Assembly: GCA_964398185.1 (NCBI GenBank)
Contig: CAYNML010000003.1
Coordinates: 16,303 to 80,302 of the forward strand
Length of the DNA stretch: 64,000 bases
Source: an uncultured Anaerolineae bacterium
Lineage (GTDB): Bacteria; Chloroflexota; Anaerolineae; Fen-1058
Direction of reading: 5' to 3'
Below are positions 52,446 to 61,075 of the stretch, piece after piece. A model generated the notes under the pieces. The model was given only the letters and a program-made list of their open reading frames with translations. It did no database searches and was not told where the DNA came from. Made by a program: the position numbers and the translations under genes. Each line of letters starts with the position of its first letter. The first letter of the stretch is position 1.

Positions 52446-55400
52446 ATGACTACCGCCAATCCGCCGCGTTCCTCCAATCGCACACCGTTGATCATCGTGG
52501 CTGTCGTCGCCGTCCTTGCGCTGATCGCGGGCGGCGTGTTCCTGGCAACCCGCAAGTCGCCGGAAAAGGTCGTGCAGGAACTGGTGGCGCAGCTGCCGCC
52601 CTTCGTGATCGATCGCGCGCCCGCGCGCGGCGAAGAGCAGGGCACCGAAGCGCCCATCACGCTCTCCTTCGACAAGCCGATGGATCGCGCCTCGGTCGAG
52701 CAGGCGTTTGAGATCACGCCCCGGGTGAGCGGTGCGTTCAAGTGGAATGGCGACAACACGCAAGTGTCGTTCGTGCCGACGGGCGAGGGGTTTGCGCGCG
52801 GCGAAGTGTACAGTGTCAACGTGCTGACCACGGCGCTGGCCGCCAACGGGATGATGCTGGGCCAGCCGCTGCAATTCACCTTCAAGGCCGTGGGCTTTCT
52901 GGCTGTGACGCAGGTGATGCCCGCCGACGCTGCGGAAGGCGTCGATCCCGATACCGACATCACGGTGATGTTCAATCGCCCCGTCGTGCCGCTGGCGCCG
53001 ATCGAGGAACAGGCAAATCTCCCGCAGCCGCTGGTGCTCGATCCGCCGGCGCCAGGTAAAGGCGAATGGATCAACACGTCGATCTATGTGTTCCGCCCGG
53101 ATGATCGCTTGCAGTCCGGCATCAAGTACACCGCCAAAATCCCGGCGGGCTTGCAAGATCCGTTGGGCGCGGAACTGCGTGAAGATGTGGTGTGGTCATT
53201 CACGACGATGACGCCGCAGGTGATCGCCACCGGGCCGACGGACGGCGAGAGCGATGTGTGGCTCGATCGATCAATCCAGGTGGTCTTCAGCCAGCCGATG
53301 AATCATGCCAGCGTTGAGAGCCTCTTCTCGCTGCGGCAGGGATCGCCCGATGGGCCGCCAGTGCCGGGCGCCTTTACGTGGGTCACCTCGACTATGGTGA
53401 ACGATATGCTGCCGATGGGCATGAGCGGGATGATGACGGCGCCGCAGTTGGGCGGCGGACGCGCTTCGTTCCTGGCGGAGACGCTGATCTTCTCGCCGAC
53501 CGATCTGCTGGCGCGCGAGACGCCGTATTTCGTGAAACTGGCCGCAGGCGCGCAGGGCGCCAGCGGCGGGCTGCCCATGCCGTATGACTTCCAGTGGTCG
53601 TTCACGACGGTGAAACCACTGTATGTCATCCGCACCGATCCGGTCGATGGCGGCAGCGCCGCGCCCTACGCCTCGATGGACATCTACTTCTCCGCGCCGG
53701 TGGATGAGAAGACGCTGCAATACGTCACCACCTCAGCGGAGATTTCCCCGACGAACGTGTACACCTACTACAGCGACTACGACAATCGCTACGTTTACGG
53801 CTTTGGGCCGGGGCCGTCGGGCGAGTATCAAGTGACCATCGGGGCGCAGGTAGCCGATCGGTGGGGGCAGCCGCTCGGCGCCGATCAAGTGATCAACTTC
53901 CGCACGCGCCCGCTGCCGCCGGAGCAGTGGTTCGACGTGCCGGGCCGCTTCGGCGTGTACGGCAACTACACTGACACCGTGATCTATGCGCGCTATCGCA
54001 ATGTGTCGCAGCTGGACTTGGAGCTGTATCAAGTGTCGCTGGCGGAGTTCGCCTATCTCATCGGGCCAGAATCGTGGTCACGCTGGGATCAGGCGGTGCC
54101 CGTCAACGGGCCGCCGGTGCGCGTGTGGAGCGTGCCGGTCAATAAGCCGCTGAACGAAGCGGGCTTGATTCGCATTCCGGTGGAGAGCGATGCGGGCGGC
54201 GTGTTACCTACGGGCATCTACCTGATCCGCGTCACCTCGCCAGAGCAGCAGCAGAATGATTACGGCGGTATCACGCGCCACTTGATGGTGGTGTCTGATA
54301 ACAATGTCACTTTGAAAGCTGCCGATAAAGAAGGGCTGGTGTGGGCCACGAATCTCCAATCGGGTCTTGAGACCGCCGGAGTCCCGATCAGCATTTACGA
54401 TCCGGATTTCAATCGCTTGTCAGCGGGCGCGACGGATCAAGCAGGTCTATATCGATACGATGTTGAAGCGCAGCGCGATCCCAATATCAGCTTGATGGCC
54501 GTGCTGGGTGACTATGGCGGGCCGTTTGGCGTGGCGGTCAGCGATTGGAACGCAGGCATCGCGCCGTGGGACTTTGGGGTGTATGCCAATTACTACGCCA
54601 GCGTGTACAACGCTTATCTCTACACCGATAAACCGATCTATCGACCGGGGCAGACCGTGCACATCAAAGGCATTGTGCGCATTGAAGACGATGCGCGCTA
54701 TGCGATTGATCCGAATCTGAAGTTGATCGATGTGTTGATCTACGACGCGCAGGGCAAGCAGGTGTACACCGGCACACAGGCGTTGAATGATTTCGGCGCC
54801 TTCAACTTTGATTTTGATCTCGATGAAGAAGCGGCGCTGGGCGGCTATTCGATACAAGCGCAGATTCCGGTGCGCTATCCGGGGCAGGATGTGCCGATCG
54901 TGCAGTATTACAACGGCAATTTCGTGGTGGCCGAATATCGTCGGCCGGAGTTCCAGGTGACGGTGACCGCGGCACAGGACGAAGTGCTGCAAGGCGAAAC
55001 CATCGACGTGGAAGTGGAGGCGAGTTACTTCTTCGGCGGCGCGGTGGGCAATGCGCCCGTCAACTGGTCGGCGGTTGCCAGCGATTACTATTTCGATCGT
55101 TACGACGGGCCGGGCTATTACGATTGGAACGACATCGACTACAGCGGCATTTATGATTCGTCGCGCGGCGGATTGATCGCTTCCGGCGAAGGCCAGACCG
55201 ACGCGCAGGGCAAGTTCAAGATCAGCCTGCCCGCCCAGCTCGACGAGAAGACCGGCAGCCAGACGTTCAACATCGAAGCGGCCGTGACTGATCTCAACGG
55301 GCAGTACGTGGCGAATCGCGTCAGTGTGATCGTACACCAGGGCGAATACTACATCGGCGTTGCGCCCGTCGATTACGTGGGCACGGCGGGCCAGCCCATG

Positions 55401-58400
55401 GACTTCAATCTGCTCACGGTCGATTGGCAGGGCGATGCGATCGGGAACAAGAATCTCGACATCGTGTTCTACCAGCGCGAGTGGTTCAACGTGCAGGAAC
55501 AGGACGACTTCGGCAACATCATGTGGACATGGTCGTTCAGCGATACGGCAGTGTTCACGACGACGGCCACCACTGGTACAGCCGGCAAAGGCATTACGTC
55601 GTTCACGCCGCCCAACGGCGGTGAATATCGCGTGGTGGCGCGCGGCGTCGATGGCAAGAACAACAAGATTTCGTCGGCGACTTACGTGTGGGTGTCGAGC
55701 GAAGAGTACGTGTCGTGGCGGCAGGACAACAACGATCGCATCTCGCTGGTGGCGGACAAGAAGGAATACACGCCCGGCGACGTGGCGAAGATTCTGATCC
55801 CGTCGCCGTATCAGGGGCAGGTGCGCGCGCTAATCACCACCGAGCGCGGCCGCATCCTCGATCAACGGGTGATCACACTCCAGACCAACAGCGATGTGAT
55901 CGAGATTCCCATCACCCCGGCGCTGGCGCCCAATGCCTTCGTGTCGGTCGTCCTCGTCAAGGGCGTCGATCAAAACGATCTCGCGCCGTCGTTCAAGATC
56001 GGTTACGCCTCGTTCAAGGTGAATCGCGCCGCGCAGGAACTGTATATCACGCTGACCCCCGATCGCGATCCCCAGACCGAGCACTATGCGCCGCGCGACA
56101 CGGTGACGTACACCGTGCAGATCGAGAATTACGCGGGCGAGCCGGTGCAGGCGGAAACGTCGCTGGCGATGGTCGATCTGGCGGTGCTCTCGCTGCTCGA
56201 TCGGTTGAACGTGCCCATCGCGGATCACTTCTACGGCGAGCGCGGCCTGGGCATTCGCACCGGCATCTCGCTGGTGTACTCGGTCGATCGCATCAACGTG
56301 AAGCTGGCAGAAGAAGCCAAGGGCGGCGGCGGCGGCGCCGATGCGGCCGGCGGCTTCAGCGTGCGCGGCGATTTCCGCGACACGGCCTTCTGGAAGGCTG
56401 ATGTGACGACGGATGCCAACGGCCTCGCGACGGTGTCGTTCACGCTGCCGGATAACCTGACCACATGGCGCATGTCGGCGATTGCGATCACGAAGGACGG
56501 ACTCGTCGGCGAAGGCCAATCGGAAATTAGAAGCACGAAGGACTTGCTCATCCGCCCGGTGACGCCGCGCTTCATGATCGTCGGCGATCAACTCAACATG
56601 GCGGCTGTCGTCAACAACAATACAAGCAATGACATCACGGCGGACGTGTCGCTGGAAGGCACGGGCATCACCATCGACAACGGACAGGTGAAGCAGAGCG
56701 TGACCGTTCCGGCGGGCGGCGCGGTGCGCGTGGACTGGCCGGTGACGGTGCTGGATGCGGAGTATGCCGATCTCACCTTCAGCGTGCGCGGCGGCGGCTT
56801 GCAGGATGCGAGCAAGCCCACGGCGGGTCTGCCGCCCGATCAGCATCTGCCCATCTACAAGTACAGCACACCGGACACCACCGCGACGAGCGGCAACGTG
56901 ACGAAAGAAGATCCGGTGCGCACGGAAGTCATCGTGCTGCCCAAAGCGATCGATACGACGCAGGGCGATCTGAAAGTGCAGATCGATCCGTCGCTGGCCG
57001 CCGGTTCGACGGAAGGCTTGAAGTACCTGGAGCACTATCCATATGAATGCACGGAACAGACGGTGAGCCGCTTCCTGCCGAACGTGTTGACCTATCGGGC
57101 GTTGAAGGACCTGACTCTGTCCGAGCCGGAGTTGGAAGAAAAACTCGAGCGGCTGGTGCGCTTTGGCGTGCAGCGGCTCGCCAATCAGCAGCACGTCGAC
57201 GGCGGCTGGGGCTGGTGGGTGACGGACAAGTCGAATATGCAAGTGACCACCTATGTGATGTTCGGCTTGATCAAGGCGCGGCAGGCGGGCTTCGCGGTTG
57301 AGCAGACGATGCTCGACCACGGCCTCAACTACTTGATCAGCAACTTGCAGCCGACCACGTCGCTCGCTACGCCGTGGAAAGCGAATCAACAGGCGTACAC
57401 GCTCTATGTGCTGGCCGAAGCCGGCAAGCCGCAGAACAGCGCGTTGATCTCGCTGTATGACGACAAGCGCGCGCTGCTGGGCAACTATGGCAAGGCGTTG
57501 CTGGCGCTGGGCCTGAACCTCGCGCAGCCTAATGACAAATCTCGCGTCAACACACTCATGAGCGACATCGTGAGCCAGGCCAAGACCAGCGCTACCGGCG
57601 TGCACTGGGAAGAGCAGGATGTGTACTGGGGCACGTGGGAAACCGATCTGCGTTCGACGGCGACGGTGCTGGACGCTTTTGCGCTGCTCGATCCCAAGAA
57701 TCCGCTCGCGCCCAACGTGGTGCGCTGGCTGATGAATTCACGTATCGAAGGCCGTTGGGCTTCGACACAAGAGACCGCGTGGACATTGATCGGTTTCACC
57801 GACTGGATGCTCGCCACCGGCGAACTCACGCCCGACTATTCGTGGGCGCTGAAGTTGAACGACGCCGTCGTCGGCACGGGCACGGCCACCAGCGAGAACG
57901 TGCGGCAATCGGCGATTATCACAAAGTCGATCAGTGAGTTAAATGTGCCGGTGAATGTGTTGACGTTCGAGCGTAAAGCAGCAGAAGGCCAATCGGGCGA
58001 CGGGATGATGTACTACTCGGCTTACCTGCGCGCGTATCAACCAGTGACGGGTGTGCAGTCGCTGTCGCGCGGCATCGTGATCGGGCGGCAGTATTACGAT
58101 CAAGGCGATGCGTGCTTCAAGCCGTTGAAGCCGGGCGAGAAGGCCATCCCTTGCACGCCGGTCACGACGGCGAAGGTGGGCGATACGCTGGTCGTGAAGT
58201 TGAGCATCGTCGCGCCGACCGATCTGTACTACGTGCTCGTCGAGAGTCCGCTGCCCGCCGGGATGGAAGCGGTGGACACCAGCCTCAAGACCACGTCGCA
58301 GATCGCGGAAGGACCAGAGTTCGGCCCGGCGAATCAACCGTACACGTTTTACGGCGGCTGGGGCTGGTGGTGGTTCACGCACACCGAACTCCGCGACGAG

Positions 58401-58571
58401 AAGGTGGCGCTGTTCGCGTCGTATCTGCCGCAGGGCACGTATGAGTACACGTACCAAATCCGCGCGGGGCTGGATGGCACCTACAACGTGCTGCCCGCGC
58501 GCGCCGAGCAGATGTACTTCCCGGAGGTGTTCGGCAGAAGTGATGGGGAGCAGTTTGTGATTGAGAGGTGA
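52446..58571 (+). CDS. alpha-2-macroglobulin family protein with an intact thioester (CTEQ), membrane-anchored, 2041 aa
   Basis: thioester motif YPYECTEQTVSRFLPNV; macroglobulin/TED region (GGWGWW..., NMQVTTYVMFGL); N-terminal TM anchor and Ig-like (SbsA-type) domains; AAGGAG SD. Confidence 0.8.
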   Translation: MTTANPPRSSNRTPLIIVAVVAVLALIAGGVFLATRKSPEKVVQELVAQLPPFVIDRAPARGEEQGTEAPITLSFDKPMDRASVEQAFEITPRVSGAFKWNGDNTQVSFVPTGEGFARGEVYSVNVLTTALAANGMMLGQPLQFTFKAVGFLAVTQVMPADAAEGVDPDTDITVMFNRPVVPLAPIEEQANLPQPLVLDPPAPGKGEWINTSIYVFRPDDRLQSGIKYTAKIPAGLQDPLGAELREDVVWSFTTMTPQVIATGPTDGESDVWLDRSIQVVFSQPMNHASVESLFSLRQGSPDGPPVPGAFTWVTSTMVNDMLPMGMSGMMTAPQLGGGRASFLAETLIFSPTDLLARETPYFVKLAAGAQGASGGLPMPYDFQWSFTTVKPLYVIRTDPVDGGSAAPYASMDIYFSAPVDEKTLQYVTTSAEISPTNVYTYYSDYDNRYVYGFGPGPSGEYQVTIGAQVADRWGQPLGADQVINFRTRPLPPEQWFDVPGRFGVYGNYTDTVIYARYRNVSQLDLELYQVSLAEFAYLIGPESWSRWDQAVPVNGPPVRVWSVPVNKPLNEAGLIRIPVESDAGGVLPTGIYLIRVTSPEQQQNDYGGITRHLMVVSDNNVTLKAADKEGLVWATNLQSGLETAGVPISIYDPDFNRLSAGATDQAGLYRYDVEAQRDPNISLMAVLGDYGGPFGVAVSDWNAGIAPWDFGVYANYYASVYNAYLYTDKPIYRPGQTVHIKGIVRIEDDARYAIDPNLKLIDVLIYDAQGKQVYTGTQALNDFGAFNFDFDLDEEAALGGYSIQAQIPVRYPGQDVPIVQYYNGNFVVAEYRRPEFQVTVTAAQDEVLQGETIDVEVEASYFFGGAVGNAPVNWSAVASDYYFDRYDGPGYYDWNDIDYSGIYDSSRGGLIASGEGQTDAQGKFKISLPAQLDEKTGSQTFNIEAAVTDLNGQYVANRVSVIVHQGEYYIGVAPVDYVGTAGQPMDFNLLTVDWQGDAIGNKNLDIVFYQREWFNVQEQDDFGNIMWTWSFSDTAVFTTTATTGTAGKGITSFTPPNGGEYRVVARGVDGKNNKISSATYVWVSSEEYVSWRQDNNDRISLVADKKEYTPGDVAKILIPSPYQGQVRALITTERGRILDQRVITLQTNSDVIEIPITPALAPNAFVSVVLVKGVDQNDLAPSFKIGYASFKVNRAAQELYITLTPDRDPQTEHYAPRDTVTYTVQIENYAGEPVQAETSLAMVDLAVLSLLDRLNVPIADHFYGERGLGIRTGISLVYSVDRINVKLAEEAKGGGGGADAAGGFSVRGDFRDTAFWKADVTTDANGLATVSFTLPDNLTTWRMSAIAITKDGLVGEGQSEIRSTKDLLIRPVTPRFMIVGDQLNMAAVVNNNTSNDITADVSLEGTGITIDNGQVKQSVTVPAGGAVRVDWPVTVLDAEYADLTFSVRGGGLQDASKPTAGLPPDQHLPIYKYSTPDTTATSGNVTKEDPVRTEVIVLPKAIDTTQGDLKVQIDPSLAAGSTEGLKYLEHYPYECTEQTVSRFLPNVLTYRALKDLTLSEPELEEKLERLVRFGVQRLANQQHVDGGWGWWVTDKSNMQVTTYVMFGLIKARQAGFAVEQTMLDHGLNYLISNLQPTTSLATPWKANQQAYTLYVLAEAGKPQNSALISLYDDKRALLGNYGKALLALGLNLAQPNDKSRVNTLMSDIVSQAKTSATGVHWEEQDVYWGTWETDLRSTATVLDAFALLDPKNPLAPNVVRWLMNSRIEGRWASTQETAWTLIGFTDWMLATGELTPDYSWALKLNDAVVGTGTATSENVRQSAIITKSISELNVPVNVLTFERKAAEGQSGDGMMYYSAYLRAYQPVTGVQSLSRGIVIGRQYYDQGDACFKPLKPGEKAIPCTPVTTAKVGDTLVVKLSIVAPTDLYYVLVESPLPAGMEAVDTSLKTTSQIAEGPEFGPANQPYTFYGGWGWWWFTHTELRDEKVALFASYLPQGTYEYTYQIRAGLDGTYNVLPARAEQMYFPEVFGRSDGEQFVIER

Positions 58572-58617
58572 TCAGGGATCAGGGATCAGGTAACGAGTAA
58601 TCAGTAACGAATAAAGC
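58569..58617. repeat. tandem GATCAGG units followed by TAACGAGTAATCAGTAACGAATAA (stops in all three frames) directly after the A2M stop
   Basis: direct inspection. Confidence 0.6.
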
Positions 58618-58653
58618 GAAGTCCGGTCTTGGGGAAACTTGAGATCGGACTTC
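58618..58653. terminator. bidirectional hairpin GAAGTCCGGTC-N14-GATCGGACTTC shared by convergent A2M and phosphoesterase genes
   Basis: 11-bp stem with one mismatch; T-rich tracts on both sides. Confidence 0.65.
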
Positions 58654-58654
58654 T

Positions 58655-59125
58655 TCATTTGTCGGCAACTTTCAACTCGATGATCTTGGGTTCCAATCCG
58701 CGTGCTGTAACGCGGATGACGGCCACGCTAACCGGCAGATGAAAGCGGCGCGGGCCGGCGCTGCCGGGGTTGAGGTACAACACGCCGCGTTTCGTTTCGA
58801 TGACAGGTTTGTGCGAATGGCCGCTGATGACGGCGGCGATGTCATGCACGTCGGGCGTGAGACCGAGTTGATTCAGATCGTGCAGCACGAAGATCAGATG
58901 TTGATCGATCTGCACACGTTCAGTATAAGGTAGGGCGCGCGCCCATTCTTCGCGATCAGTGTTGCCGCGCACCACAAACACCGGCGCGATCTGGCGCAGA
59001 TCATCCAGAATGTCGCGGCGGCCCACATCGCCCGCGTGGATGATCACATCGGCGCCGCGCAAAGCCCTCACCGCCTCGGGGCGCAAGACACCGTGTGTGT
59101 CAGAAATTACGCCGATGGTTTTCAT
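58655..59125 (-). CDS. metallophosphoesterase (YfcE/MJ0936-family phosphodiesterase)
   Basis: GVISDTHG, GDVG, GNTD, GHSH metal-binding motifs. Confidence 0.85.
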   Translation of the reverse strand: MKTIGVISDTHGVLRPEAVRALRGADVIIHAGDVGRRDILDDLRQIAPVFVVRGNTDREEWARALPYTERVQIDQHLIFVLHDLNQLGLTPDVHDIAAVISGHSHKPVIETKRGVLYLNPGSAGPRRFHLPVSVAVIRVTARGLEPKIIELKVADK

Positions 59126-59163
59126 GATCTATGATGCGCTCATCTTCCCTGGGAGCCGCGCAC

Positions 59164-59217
59164 ATGAATGATAACACCATCCTCGTCTTCGCCCGCAACG
59201 GCCTGGGCGCTGCGTGA
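59164..59217 (+). pseudogene. 17-codon remnant of the 5' end of a dsrE-like gene (MNDNTILVFARNGLGAA*), a diverged duplicate of the start of 60123..60464
   Basis: about 79% identity over about 76 nt, including 23 nt upstream of the ATG, to 60098-60173. Confidence 0.4.
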
Positions 59218-59230
59218 GGCAGGCCAACCA

Positions 59231-59259
59231 AAAACGCGAGCCAGCTTGACTCGCGTTTT
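59231..59259. terminator. bidirectional intrinsic terminator AAAACGCGAG-N9-CTCGCGTTTT
   Basis: 10-bp stem flanked by an A-run and a T-run; downstream of hepT on the minus strand. Confidence 0.65.
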
Positions 59260-59294
59260 CATTGCGCCGCTTGCTGATCACCTCTGGTCATGCG

Positions 59295-59690
59295 TTACGC
59301 TTTGATGCGTGTCTGCCAATCATCTGCGATTATCTGATACACCGCCTCGGCTGCTCGTAGTGGATCATAAGCATCGGCCTCGACTATCTGTGGCATATCA
59401 CCAGGATAACGCGCCTCCACAGCCCAGACCGAGAGCGCGTACAGATTGGGAAAAGTCGCTTTCACCTGCCAGTCAGGTGGCACGATTTCGCGCAGGCGGT
59501 CCAGATCGTGCGTGAAGGGGAACTCGACTTCAAGCAAAACCAGTACAGCCTTAAGGGCCTTTTCGGCAGCCTGTTGCGCCAGGAAACACACCTGTCGCGG
59601 GTAATGATCAGGATCACGCAACAAGGCGTTGGCGGCATCCAGATCAGAGCGGGCATAAGCCAGCCACCGTCTTGATTCAGGGACGTTCAT
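59295..59690 (-). CDS. hepT: HEPN-domain toxin (HepT-like)
   Basis: HEPN fold with the Rx4-6H-like motif region; overlaps the upstream MNT gene by 14 nt. Confidence 0.8.
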   Translation of the reverse strand: MNVPESRRWLAYARSDLDAANALLRDPDHYPRQVCFLAQQAAEKALKAVLVLLEVEFPFTHDLDRLREIVPPDWQVKATFPNLYALSVWAVEARYPGDMPQIVEADAYDPLRAAEAVYQIIADDWQTRIKA

Positions 59691-60009
59691 AGATCACTTT
59701 CCCTTCTCTTAAGGCGGGGCGCAGCACGTCGCCGATGATGTTCCCTCGTGCAACTATTTCCTCAGGCGTGGTGACGATGATGTCCTTGCTGGCCGGCAAG
59801 TCGCTTAGCGCATTGCCAATGCGCACCGCGACCTGTCGTTTATTTTCCACGTAAGGCAGAACCACCAGCAAGTCAATATCACTGTCCGGGCGCGCATCGC
59901 CGCGCGCCCACGAGCCGAACAGGATGATGCGCAGCGGATCGAACTGCCGCGCGATGCGCCGGACAGCTTCAGCGAGGCATTCGGGTTGCGTGACGGGTGA
60001 CACGGTCAT
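59677..60009 (-). CDS. mntA: minimal nucleotidyltransferase antitoxin (MntA-like)
   Basis: NTase motif ILFGSWARGDARPDSDIDLLV; paired and overlapping with the HEPN gene. Confidence 0.8.
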   Translation of the reverse strand: MTVSPVTQPECLAEAVRRIARQFDPLRIILFGSWARGDARPDSDIDLLVVLPYVENKRQVAVRIGNALSDLPASKDIIVTTPEEIVARGNIIGDVLRPALREGKVIYERP

Positions 60010-60122
60010 GGGTGTGCCTTGCTGTCTATTTTACCTCACTCGCGGCGCACTGCCAGAATGCACAACGGCGGATCGCCAGGCGGTGGTTTATAATTCCCTC
60101 ATCCTCTCTCGGAGCCACACAC

Positions 60123-60464
60123 ATGAATAATACTACCATCCTCGTCTTCACCCGCACTGGAATGGGCGAGGCGCCCGCCGAGTTGCAGCAGAAACTCGCC
60201 GTGAAGTTCTTGCAACTTAACCTCGACGCCAACACGCTGCCCGCCAAGATTCTGTTTTACACCGACGGCGTGAAACTTGCGTGTGAGGGATCGCCCGTCA
60301 TCGGTGAATTGGAAGCCATGAAAGATCGCGGCGTGGAGTTGATCTTGTGCAGCACGTGTCTTGACTACTTCAATCTGCGCGACAGAGTGCAGGTCGGCAT
60401 CATCGGCGGCATGCCGGACATCATCGAGGCGTTGAGCATCGCGGGGAAAGTCATCAGCCTGTAA
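60123..60464 (+). CDS. DsrE/DsrF/TusD-like family protein
   Basis: 113-aa Rossmann-like protein (TILVFTRTGMGEAP...ILCSTCLDYF) with the conserved Cys region. Confidence 0.55.
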   Translation: MNNTTILVFTRTGMGEAPAELQQKLAVKFLQLNLDANTLPAKILFYTDGVKLACEGSPVIGELEAMKDRGVELILCSTCLDYFNLRDRVQVGIIGGMPDIIEALSIAGKVISL

Positions 60465-60658
60465 GCGCTCAAGCAACCGGGTTTCTGCAACCCGGCCTTG
60501 ATTCCAGGCAGATTGGAAAAACCCGGTTCCTGCGAACAATCCTGCGCGCTGCTTCGTGTTCTTCGTGGATCAAAATCAATCCGTGTAATCTGGGTGCATC
60601 CGTGCCCAAAAAAACGAGCCGACCTCAGAGCGAGATCGGCTCGCGGCGTTATTCCACT

Positions 60659-61075
60659 TCAGGGCGTGACAGTTGCCAAACGTGCCACGTCGCCCCCGGC
60701 ATTCGTGTGATACTCGTACTGCTGGCCGTTGGCCTCCAGGATCACACGATAACCCGGCGTGATCACCAGCGCGCACATGATGCCGGGGGTCTCGATGCCC
60801 AGGCAGGCATTGGGCCAGTCCACTGCCTCCACGCTCGCCACCGTAATCGCGCTCGCTGCAATAGTCAACCGCGCCGCCAGATCGTTAAGCGAGTTGGCGA
60901 CGGCGGCCGCCTGTCCAGACGTGCTCGCGTCGCCGCCGGGATTGAGCGGGCTGGGTGGAACGGTGGGCAGCACGCTCGGCGGGCTAGTTGGAACGATCGG
61001 GGCGGTTGAGGGCGCGCCGCACGCTGCCAGCAGCAGCGTTGCCAACAGCACAAGCCTCAGCAGTTTTGATTTCAT
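60659..61075 (-). CDS. hypothetical lipoprotein
   Basis: signal peptide MKSKLLRLVLLATLLLAAC with lipobox LAAC; AAGGAG SD; start at 61075 rather than 61126. Confidence 0.6.
   Translation of the reverse strand: MKSKLLRLVLLATLLLAACGAPSTAPIVPTSPPSVLPTVPPSPLNPGGDASTSGQAAAVANSLNDLAARLTIAASAITVASVEAVDWPNACLGIETPGIMCALVITPGYRVILEANGQQYEYHTNAGGDVARLATVTP

Follow-up and report, generated by a model that had tools for sequence, protein, structure and literature searches.

How did a pair of overlapping genes, one encoding a HEPN-domain protein and the other a minimal nucleotidyltransferase (MNT), come to lie between two copies of the start of a DsrE-like gene in an uncultured bacterium of the class Anaerolineae? 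The locus is part of a 64,000-nucleotide stretch of Chloroflexota DNA (hereafter, the window; GenBank assembly GCA_964398185.1, contig CAYNML010000003.1, positions 16,303 to 80,302 of the forward strand), and a first-pass annotation, made without database searches, had read it as the footprint of an insertion, or of a duplication followed by replacement, that brought in the putative toxin-antitoxin (TA) pair. Comparison with homologous loci, denoted here by L or P numbers, bears out such a footprint: a relative (L113) carries the corresponding empty site, the TA cassette occurs as a discrete unit in many other contexts, and the variable stretch of the window holds neither an integrase nor a transposase. 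We consider it moderately probable that the left copy of the repeated gene start (copy A) is a dead remnant, consisting of the promoter, leader, and first 17 codons of a resident dsrE gene that once adjoined a metallophosphoesterase (MPE) gene and was displaced by a recombined-in cassette and dsrE segment.

The two copies themselves are unambiguous. Copy A (59126..59217, plus strand) is a pseudo-dsrE stub with a degenerate −10 box, a Shine-Dalgarno (SD) sequence, an ATG at 59164, and 17 codons (MNDNTILVFARNGLGAA) followed by TGA at 59215-59217. Copy B, together with the intact DsrE-like gene of which it forms the start, occupies 60085..60464 on the plus strand, with the coding sequence at 60123..60464 (113 codons; PF02635, E 2e-7, 31.6 bits versus a gathering threshold of 22.7). 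Local alignment of 59100-59300 with 60059-60259 returned a single ungapped match of 80 nt (59130-59209 and 60089-60168, offset 959), in which 64 of the 80 positions are identical; the corresponding counts are 69/89 across 59126-59214 (versus 60085-60173) and 59/77 at the coordinates originally reported (59141-59217 and 60098-60173). The alignment score of 80 lies far above those of 2000 shuffled sequence pairs, which averaged 16.6 (sd 2.3) and never exceeded 30, and the top unrelated alignment elsewhere in the 64-kb window scores 26. Thus, the first-pass annotation was correct in that there are two copies of the dsrE start, that copy A is cut off by a stop after 17 codons, and that the copies are about 79% identical (78.8% over the shared segment). 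The segment of about 76 nt with 23 nt of upstream sequence that it had proposed is, however, too short: the repeat extends over ~86-89 nt, starts ~11-15 nt farther upstream, and takes in the −10 box (copy A, TATGAT, 59130-59135; copy B, TATAAT, 60089-60094) in addition to the SD motif GGAG (59152-59155 and 60111-60114), the ATG (59164 and 60123), and the 17 DsrE-like codons. The longest identical stretch, 15 nt, is located in the middle of the repeat rather than at its end.

Orthologs of the DsrE-like gene with a conserved −10 box and leader were found in more than 25 loci, which allowed us to place both copies among them. Within the shared segment, copy A is 80.7% identical to L113 and 83.5% identical to L092/L097, and copy B is 77.1% identical to L113; in general, either copy matches the orthologs of other species at 75-84%, and the identity between the two copies is no higher. 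Given that the divergence between copies A and B (79% identity) equals that between orthologs of different species in this clade, the copies may simply stem from two lineages, and the age of the event, described as old in the first-pass annotation, is not readable from this value. Nor do the pairwise identities over the 85-nt segment (71-84%) discriminate which copy is native, the segment being too short for this purpose. The peptide encoded by copy A differs at two positions from the DsrE N-terminus of L010, and copy B is the more derived of the two in the coding part. The copy B segment is 81% identical to L009, compared to 87-92% for the remainder of dsrE, which, the leader being non-coding, is no more than suggestive of a history distinct from that of the rest of the gene.

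The empty site comes from the comparison of the MPE-dsrE junction in relatives that lack the TA pair. In L113, a contig recovered in the metagenome scan, the gene for an alpha-2-macroglobulin (A2M)-like protein is followed by MPE on the minus strand and an intact dsrE gene on the plus strand, with one dsrE start and no TA pair. Positions 58657-59214 of the window, comprising MPE and copy A, align to L113 878-1429 (83% identity), and positions 60086-60525, comprising copy B and dsrE, align to L113 1344-1783 (84%), so that the two alignments overlap at the single dsrE start of L113. Relative to L113, the window contains ~871 extra bases (59215-60085) and a second copy of the 86-89-nt start region, and it is copy A that stays collinear with MPE, as in L113. 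The start codons of MPE and dsrE are 36 nt apart in L113; for MPE and copy A of the window, the distance is 38 nt. The window MPE, the left neighbor of the stub (58655..59125, minus strand), belongs to the YfcE family (PF12850, E 3.6e-33; TIGR00040, 84 bits).

The surroundings of the empty site are highly variable. A scan of species-representative genomes for the DsrE-like protein recovered uncultured Chloroflexota (Anaerolineae/Thermoflexales-like metagenome-assembled genomes), the best match showing 88% amino acid identity. Five genomes (L009-L013) are syntenic with the window and share its flanks, namely, A2M on the left and hyp138, hyp87, hyp89, and DUF6754 on the right; each has a single dsrE start, and the HEPN/MNT pair is absent from all five. 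The gap between A2M and dsrE (58572-60122 in the window) is empty in L012 (164 bp), holds a DUF45-like gene fragment in L009, a TA-like pair, MPE, and, between MPE and dsrE, a uracil-DNA glycosylase-like gene in L011, and a RelE-type TA with three other genes in L013; among metagenome contigs, L091 carries RelE-Phd and a CoA-binding protein in this position, and L115 an IS110-like transposase. MPE adjoins dsrE only in the window and in L113, and is missing from L009, L012, L013, and L091. The content of the gap differs in every relative, which marks it as a hot spot where accessory genes collect, MPE being one of the variable components. The small accessory island without a recognizable integrase that had been suggested for the TA pair is borne out in that MPE, the stub, HEPN, and MNT make up all of the variable stretch, which has no integrase or transposase, and in that the conserved flanks (A2M and, on the right, hyp138/hyp87/DUF6754) enclose no recombinase gene; its extent, however, was underestimated, given that the whole A2M-dsrE gap, including MPE, varies and accumulates TA modules. 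The exact window proteins are encoded on eight contigs, and in the four whose arrangement was compared, each from a different sample (three from JGI and one from Logan/SRA), it is the same as in the window.

The inserted DNA has sharp and recurrent edges. The conserved cassette (59219..60038, minus strand) consists of a hairpin, the HEPN and MNT genes, and the −10 box of the MNT gene (TAAAAT). Nucleotide homology to the cassette begins at 59219-59240 and ends at 60036-60038, with 77-84% identity, in L089, L090, L171, L175, L177, and L178 (82% over 822 nt for L089/L090, 84% for L171, 83% for L175, 80% for L177, and 78% for L178). With the same edges, it is found in at least six different contexts, and the sequences past both edges are unrelated and locus-specific. 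On the left, these contexts include a probable DUF488 gene in L090 and an annotated DUF488 at the same position in the P0014 and P0019 contigs, an L009-type DUF45 fragment (91% identical to L009) in L175, an alcohol dehydrogenase gene in L176, and an overlapping open reading frame in L177; two contigs of sample 3300075153 have the order DUF488-HEPN-MNT-DsrE. On the right, the cassette is followed directly by hyp155 in L089 (1780-1873), where dsrE is missing altogether, by a Phd/YefM antitoxin and ParE/RelE toxin pair and then dsrE (Pfam assignments) in L092 (177-718), L093 (288-829), and L095 (734-1275), by a Phd remnant and then dsrE in L097 (550-690) and L178 (234-374), by a Phd remnant in L171 (56-211), and by a Phd remnant (127-273) and a dsrE gene (1-126) devoid of its first ~64-68 codons in L175. 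As a side observation, the truncation of dsrE in L175 is roughly complementary to the left stub of L172/L178, hinting at a simple insertion near codon 69 in some lineage. In the window, there is no Phd/RelE pair, and the cassette is separated from copy B by a unique 50-nt spacer (60039..60088), which holds the −35-like hexamer of the predicted MNT promoter (a promoter-like site at 60056..60028 on the minus strand). No significant match to the spacer was found upstream of dsrE in 25 relatives; a resemblance to L097 noticed by eye proved not to be significant. The same TA pair also occurs without a dsrE stub, in L089/L090, L175, L176, L177, and the P0014/P0019 contigs, and with longer stubs, in L172, L178, and L173/L174. 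The repeat is thus not bound to arise whenever the cassette inserts.

Displaced dsrE starts are not limited to the window. In L172 and L178, a stub lies on the HEPN side in the orientation of copy A and comprises the promoter and ~51-54 clear codons, with a junction sequence common to both loci; in a decayed form, it may continue to about codon 69. L172 and L178, sharing this junction, differ in leader type. In L173/L174, a near full-length dsrE pseudogene (63% amino acid identity, with a frameshift and a ~33-nt deletion) is located on the HEPN side, directly after the A2M terminator, and is identical in two independent assemblies. L178, a single contig that includes both flanks, overlaps L097 with 100% identity over 185 nt, giving the joint order stub, hairpin-HEPN-MNT-Phd remnant, and full dsrE. 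The L178 stub and its upstream sequence, including the Phd-type promoter region, match the start of dsrE in L094/L095 at 93-94% identity, and the intact dsrE of L178/L097 has a leader allele that differs from that of the stub, which indicates that in this case the two copies come from different allelic lineages rather than from in situ duplication. More generally, the dsrE leader exists in two very different allelic types, CATCTTCTCTCGGAGCC and CACTTTTAGAAACGGAGCC (for example, in L093/L094/L095 and L009/L010/L097, respectively), with the switch near the SD sequence. In the window, the 15 nt from the stop codon of the stub to the hairpin (TGAGGCAGGCCAACC) are loosely similar to the L178/L172 junction (TGAGGATCAAAAGC). 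Microhomology at the left joint (GCAG and AAAC motifs) was also considered, and is too short to be claimed.

The series of events that we favor would begin with a donor from a related Anaerolineae lineage, in which a hairpin-terminated MNT-HEPN cassette lay upstream of the donor's own dsrE promoter and gene. The right end of the incoming segment would have been joined by homology, within dsrE or the conserved genes beyond it, and the left end, just outside the hairpin, would have been joined illegitimately inside the resident dsrE, either after codon 17, where the junction is now, or deeper in the gene, with a later deletion shortening the stub to 17 codons. Such a one-ended, homology-facilitated illegitimate recombination would have stranded the resident 5′ end as the stub, leaving the incoming promoter and 5′ end (copy B) to drive the functional gene. 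In this clade, the A2M-dsrE gap is a recombination hot spot, in which HEPN/MNT and Phd/ParE-RelE modules, along with other genes, are stacked, truncated, and exchanged without integrases or transposases. Both the empty site and the collinearity of copy A with MPE are seen in L113; the differing allelic origin of the two copies is seen in L178/L097, and the identities do not discriminate on this point in the window.

Several considerations weigh against this scenario. Copy A, copy B, and L113 have a common 1-nt deletion in the leader (CA-CATG, compared to CACCATG in the other orthologs), which indicates either a close relationship of donor and recipient or a conversion event. The deletion hints that copies A and B are close relatives, and duplication within the lineage, or gene conversion, would fit no less well than a donor of close kinship; with only 80 nt, the segment does not allow a resolved phylogeny. 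Instead of representing the ancestral state, L113 could have reverted to it, recombination between the repeats having removed the cassette, and it is a low-quality contig with frameshifts in MPE and dsrE that are probably sequencing errors. Furthermore, no donor lineage with exactly the copy B and spacer of the window was found, and we infer the order of events and the mechanism from the end products only.

One alternative is a tandem duplication in situ of the dsrE promoter together with the whole gene or its 5′ part, with the cassette landing between the copies and the redundant left copy decaying to different lengths in different lineages. The stubs, which agree in position and orientation, can indeed be ordered by length (full length in L173, ~51-69 codons in L172/L178, and 17 codons in the window), the likeness between TGAGGCAGGCCAACC and TGAGGATCAAAAGC means that the window stub could derive from a longer one by internal deletion, and the leader deletion common to copy A, copy B, and L113 is readily accommodated. 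Yet, the absence of the hairpin from L173 defeats a simple deletion series starting from that locus, the left contexts of the stubs are lineage-specific (the window stub adjoins MPE, that of L173 the A2M terminator, and that of L178 a Phd promoter), copies A and B are no more similar to each other than are orthologs of different species, and, in L178/L097, the stub, 93-94% identical to L094/L095, and the intact copy have different leader alleles. On balance, we regard in situ duplication as possible but rather unlikely. Insertion of a mobile element, with the copies representing attachment sites (attL/attR) or a long target-site duplication and the TA pair the addictive remnant of an element that lost its recombinase, might be invoked because direct repeats surround an accessory cassette, TA modules are commonly kept from degraded islands, and L115 carries an IS110-like transposase in this gap. 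It is nevertheless very improbable. The window lacks the recombinase between the flanks and the identical crossover core of an integrase island, its longest identical run being the 15 nt in mid-repeat, and likewise lacks the transposase of a transposon or insertion sequence in the variable stretch; the repeat measures 86-89 nt at 77-80% identity, stub lengths vary (17, ~51-54, and ~111 codons), the cassette lacks a flanking repeat altogether in five or more other contexts, and its edges display no terminal inverted repeats, only the terminator palindrome, and no short target-site duplication.

A different question, compatible with the recombination scar that we favor, is whether the stub has been retained as a functional element, be it as the promoter or 5′ untranslated region of MPE, a role that would have kept deletions from running beyond codon 17, as a gene for a 17-residue peptide, or as the source of an antisense transcript modulating the TA operon. 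The SD sequence, the ATG, and the open frame are intact, the hairpin separates the stub from the convergent HEPN gene, and the MPE start is as close to the stub ATG as in the tight divergent pair of L113, a spacing so narrow that any MPE promoter must lie inside the 5′ sequence of dsrE. Still, no sigma-70-like promoter was detected on the minus strand within the stub at the thresholds used, the −10 box of the stub is degraded (TATGAT), an Rfam scan of 58500-60700 at E ≤ 1 gave no match, and read-through from the TA operon could account for MPE transcription, so that retention for function appears unlikely. A more far-reaching proposition, that the 5′ region of dsrE and/or the hairpin is a preferred site of integrase-independent TA capture, at which HEPN/MNT and Phd/ParE modules would arrive again and again and pile up across an Anaerolineae clade, with the three stub lengths being independent hits and the stub kept for the promoters of its neighbors, strikes us as a long shot. 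The likelihood that the repeat is a chance similarity of GC-rich sequences or an assembly artifact is practically negligible, considering the alignment score, the identical arrangement on independent contigs from four samples, and the alignment of each copy with the start of the dsrE orthologs in other species.

As to the cargo, the HEPN gene (59295..59690, minus strand) encodes a 131-residue putative toxin (PF05168, E 1e-17) and the MNT gene (59677..60009, minus strand), upstream of it, a 110-residue putative antitoxin (PF01909, E 4e-12). The genes overlap, as previously reported, by 14 nt (59677-59690), and the pairing of a PF05168 HEPN with an adjoining PF01909 MNT in one operon is kept in every homologous locus examined. 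The MNT translation contains the GSx10DxD motif (GSWARGDARPDSDID), which, together with its position upstream of and overlapping the toxin gene, matches the description of a type VII antitoxin. The names hepT and mntA given to these genes in the first-pass annotation are nevertheless too specific. The MNT scores 38.6 bits with the NCBIfam MntA model, below the cut-off of 60, and the HEPN protein, for which PF05168 is the only family recovered, has no DUF86/HepT match in Pfam at E ≤ 5 and none in NCBIfam, so that it falls outside HepT/DUF86 as delineated by PF01934 or the NCBIfam HepT models. It also lacks the canonical Rx4-6H (Rx4HxY) RNase motif, reading R94-Y-P-G-D98-M99 at this position. 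We retrieved 642 HEPN homologs at E ≤ 1e-10; among 114 aligned homologs, only 6 have His at position 98, whereas H61, D62, D64, and R67 are invariant, as is R94-Y-P. The invariant His61-Asp-Leu-Asp and Arg67 suggest a possible alternative active site. The replacement has a precedent in the PF05168 HEPN-T variant (PMC3710099, Table 1), in which "D replaces conserved H ... have a conserved H elsewhere". Among solved structures, the best sequence matches are TT1696 of Thermus thermophilus (1UFB; phmmer E 5e-5) for HEPN and a minimal nucleotidyltransferase from Thermus (1WOT; phmmer E 2e-5) for MNT, the similarity being weak in both cases. PADLOC returned only generic nucleotidyltransferase matches (PDC-S09, cyclase) and no defined defense system. 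Thus, the pair resembles a HEPN/MNT module in gene order, overlap, and MNT motif while lying outside HepT/MntA proper, and its activity as toxin and antitoxin is putative.

Near the left edge of the cassette is a palindromic hairpin (59231..59259) which occurs once in the window and probably serves the MNT-HEPN operon as its intrinsic terminator. The minus strand has a 13-bp stem with UUUUUGG after it; in the plus-strand form, which is less convincing, UUUUCAUU comes after the stem. The palindrome described earlier as a bidirectional terminator is real, and termination in both directions is plausible, including that of transcripts from the stub, which the hairpin may also stop. A simple terminator scan did not call it. 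The same hairpin pattern is found in two loci without HEPN/MNT, L091 (2679-2707) and L115 (3782-3810). In L091, it directly follows the RelE stop codon, and thus looks like the terminator of a composite Phd-RelE-MNT-HEPN island. The hairpin may accordingly be both a shared terminator and a recurrent recombination edge.

Several other features of the locus complete this picture. The DsrE-like protein resembles the C-terminal half of YedF (TIGR03527, 93 bits) but, because the score is below the cut-off of 110, was not classified as YedF. The GC content of the cassette (55-61%) is within the range of the flanks (54-64%) and carries no foreign signature. The conserved left border of the hot spot is a gene for a 2041-residue A2M-like protein (52446-58571, plus strand) with Big_5, MG2, A2M, TED, and bMG10 domains. 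Its stop codon is directly followed by tandem repeats (58572-58612), with three GATCAGG units and then GTAACGA/GTAATCA/GTAACGA-like units, and these, in turn, by a hairpin at 58618-58653 that has the form of a strong terminator; L173 contains a similar repeat.

In its general outline, the locus belongs to known kinds: it is an ordinary recombination scar next to a mobile TA cassette in a hot spot. Illegitimate recombination that is facilitated by homology has been established experimentally in several bacteria (PMC3240628), and the same mechanism has been proposed for displaced remnants in type VI secretion system (T6SS) and Rhs loci (PMC5361080). The closest analogs are the orphan immunity genes and effector 3′ remnants of the Vibrio cholerae T6SS and the orphan toxin ends of Rhs and contact-dependent inhibition (CDI) loci, where, as would be the case in the window, homology anchors one end of the arriving module while the other end is joined illegitimately, a portion of the resident gene is displaced as a dead remnant, and repeated events build arrays and mosaics with no integrase involved. 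In contrast to these systems, the remnant in the window is the 5′ end (promoter and 17 codons) of a housekeeping-like DsrE-family gene rather than part of a toxin or immunity gene; the presumed homology anchor is this same DsrE-like gene, and the cargo is a TA cassette. Islands in attachment sites of the tRNA/tmRNA type are similar in that a replacement gene end arrives with the incoming DNA and what remains of the original one is a diverged direct repeat, but the window has neither an integrase nor an identical core, breakpoints vary among lineages, and it is the 5′ end of a protein-coding gene, not the 3′ end of an RNA gene, that is replaced. The TA pair shares with the type VII HepT/MntA systems of Shewanella (SO_3166/SO_3165; PMC4621449, PMC7641770) and Legionella (PMC11586414) the overlapping operon with MNT preceding HEPN, the GSx10DxD motif in MNT, similar gene sizes (110 and 131 amino acids), and a patchy, mobile distribution. 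It differs from them in that the HEPN protein belongs to PF05168 (HEPN-T), not DUF86/PF01934, the MNT remains below the NCBIfam MntA cut-off, and Rx4HxY is absent, with R94 kept, Asp in place of His, and the invariant His61 upstream; the same replacement of His by Asp characterizes the AF0298-type HEPN-T variant (Anantharaman et al. 2013, PMC3710099).

The locus does not hold the key to any open question. Its value lies mostly in providing a clean worked example, with the empty site and several intermediates available from metagenomes, of the way in which small TA cassettes can travel and accumulate in uncultured Chloroflexota that provide them with no dedicated mobility genes, a process that leaves behind dead gene starts which gene callers may mis-annotate. 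It also draws attention to a subfamily of HEPN proteins (PF05168) that lacks the canonical RNase histidine, is abundant, and behaves like a mobile TA partner, and that would be worth testing for toxicity.

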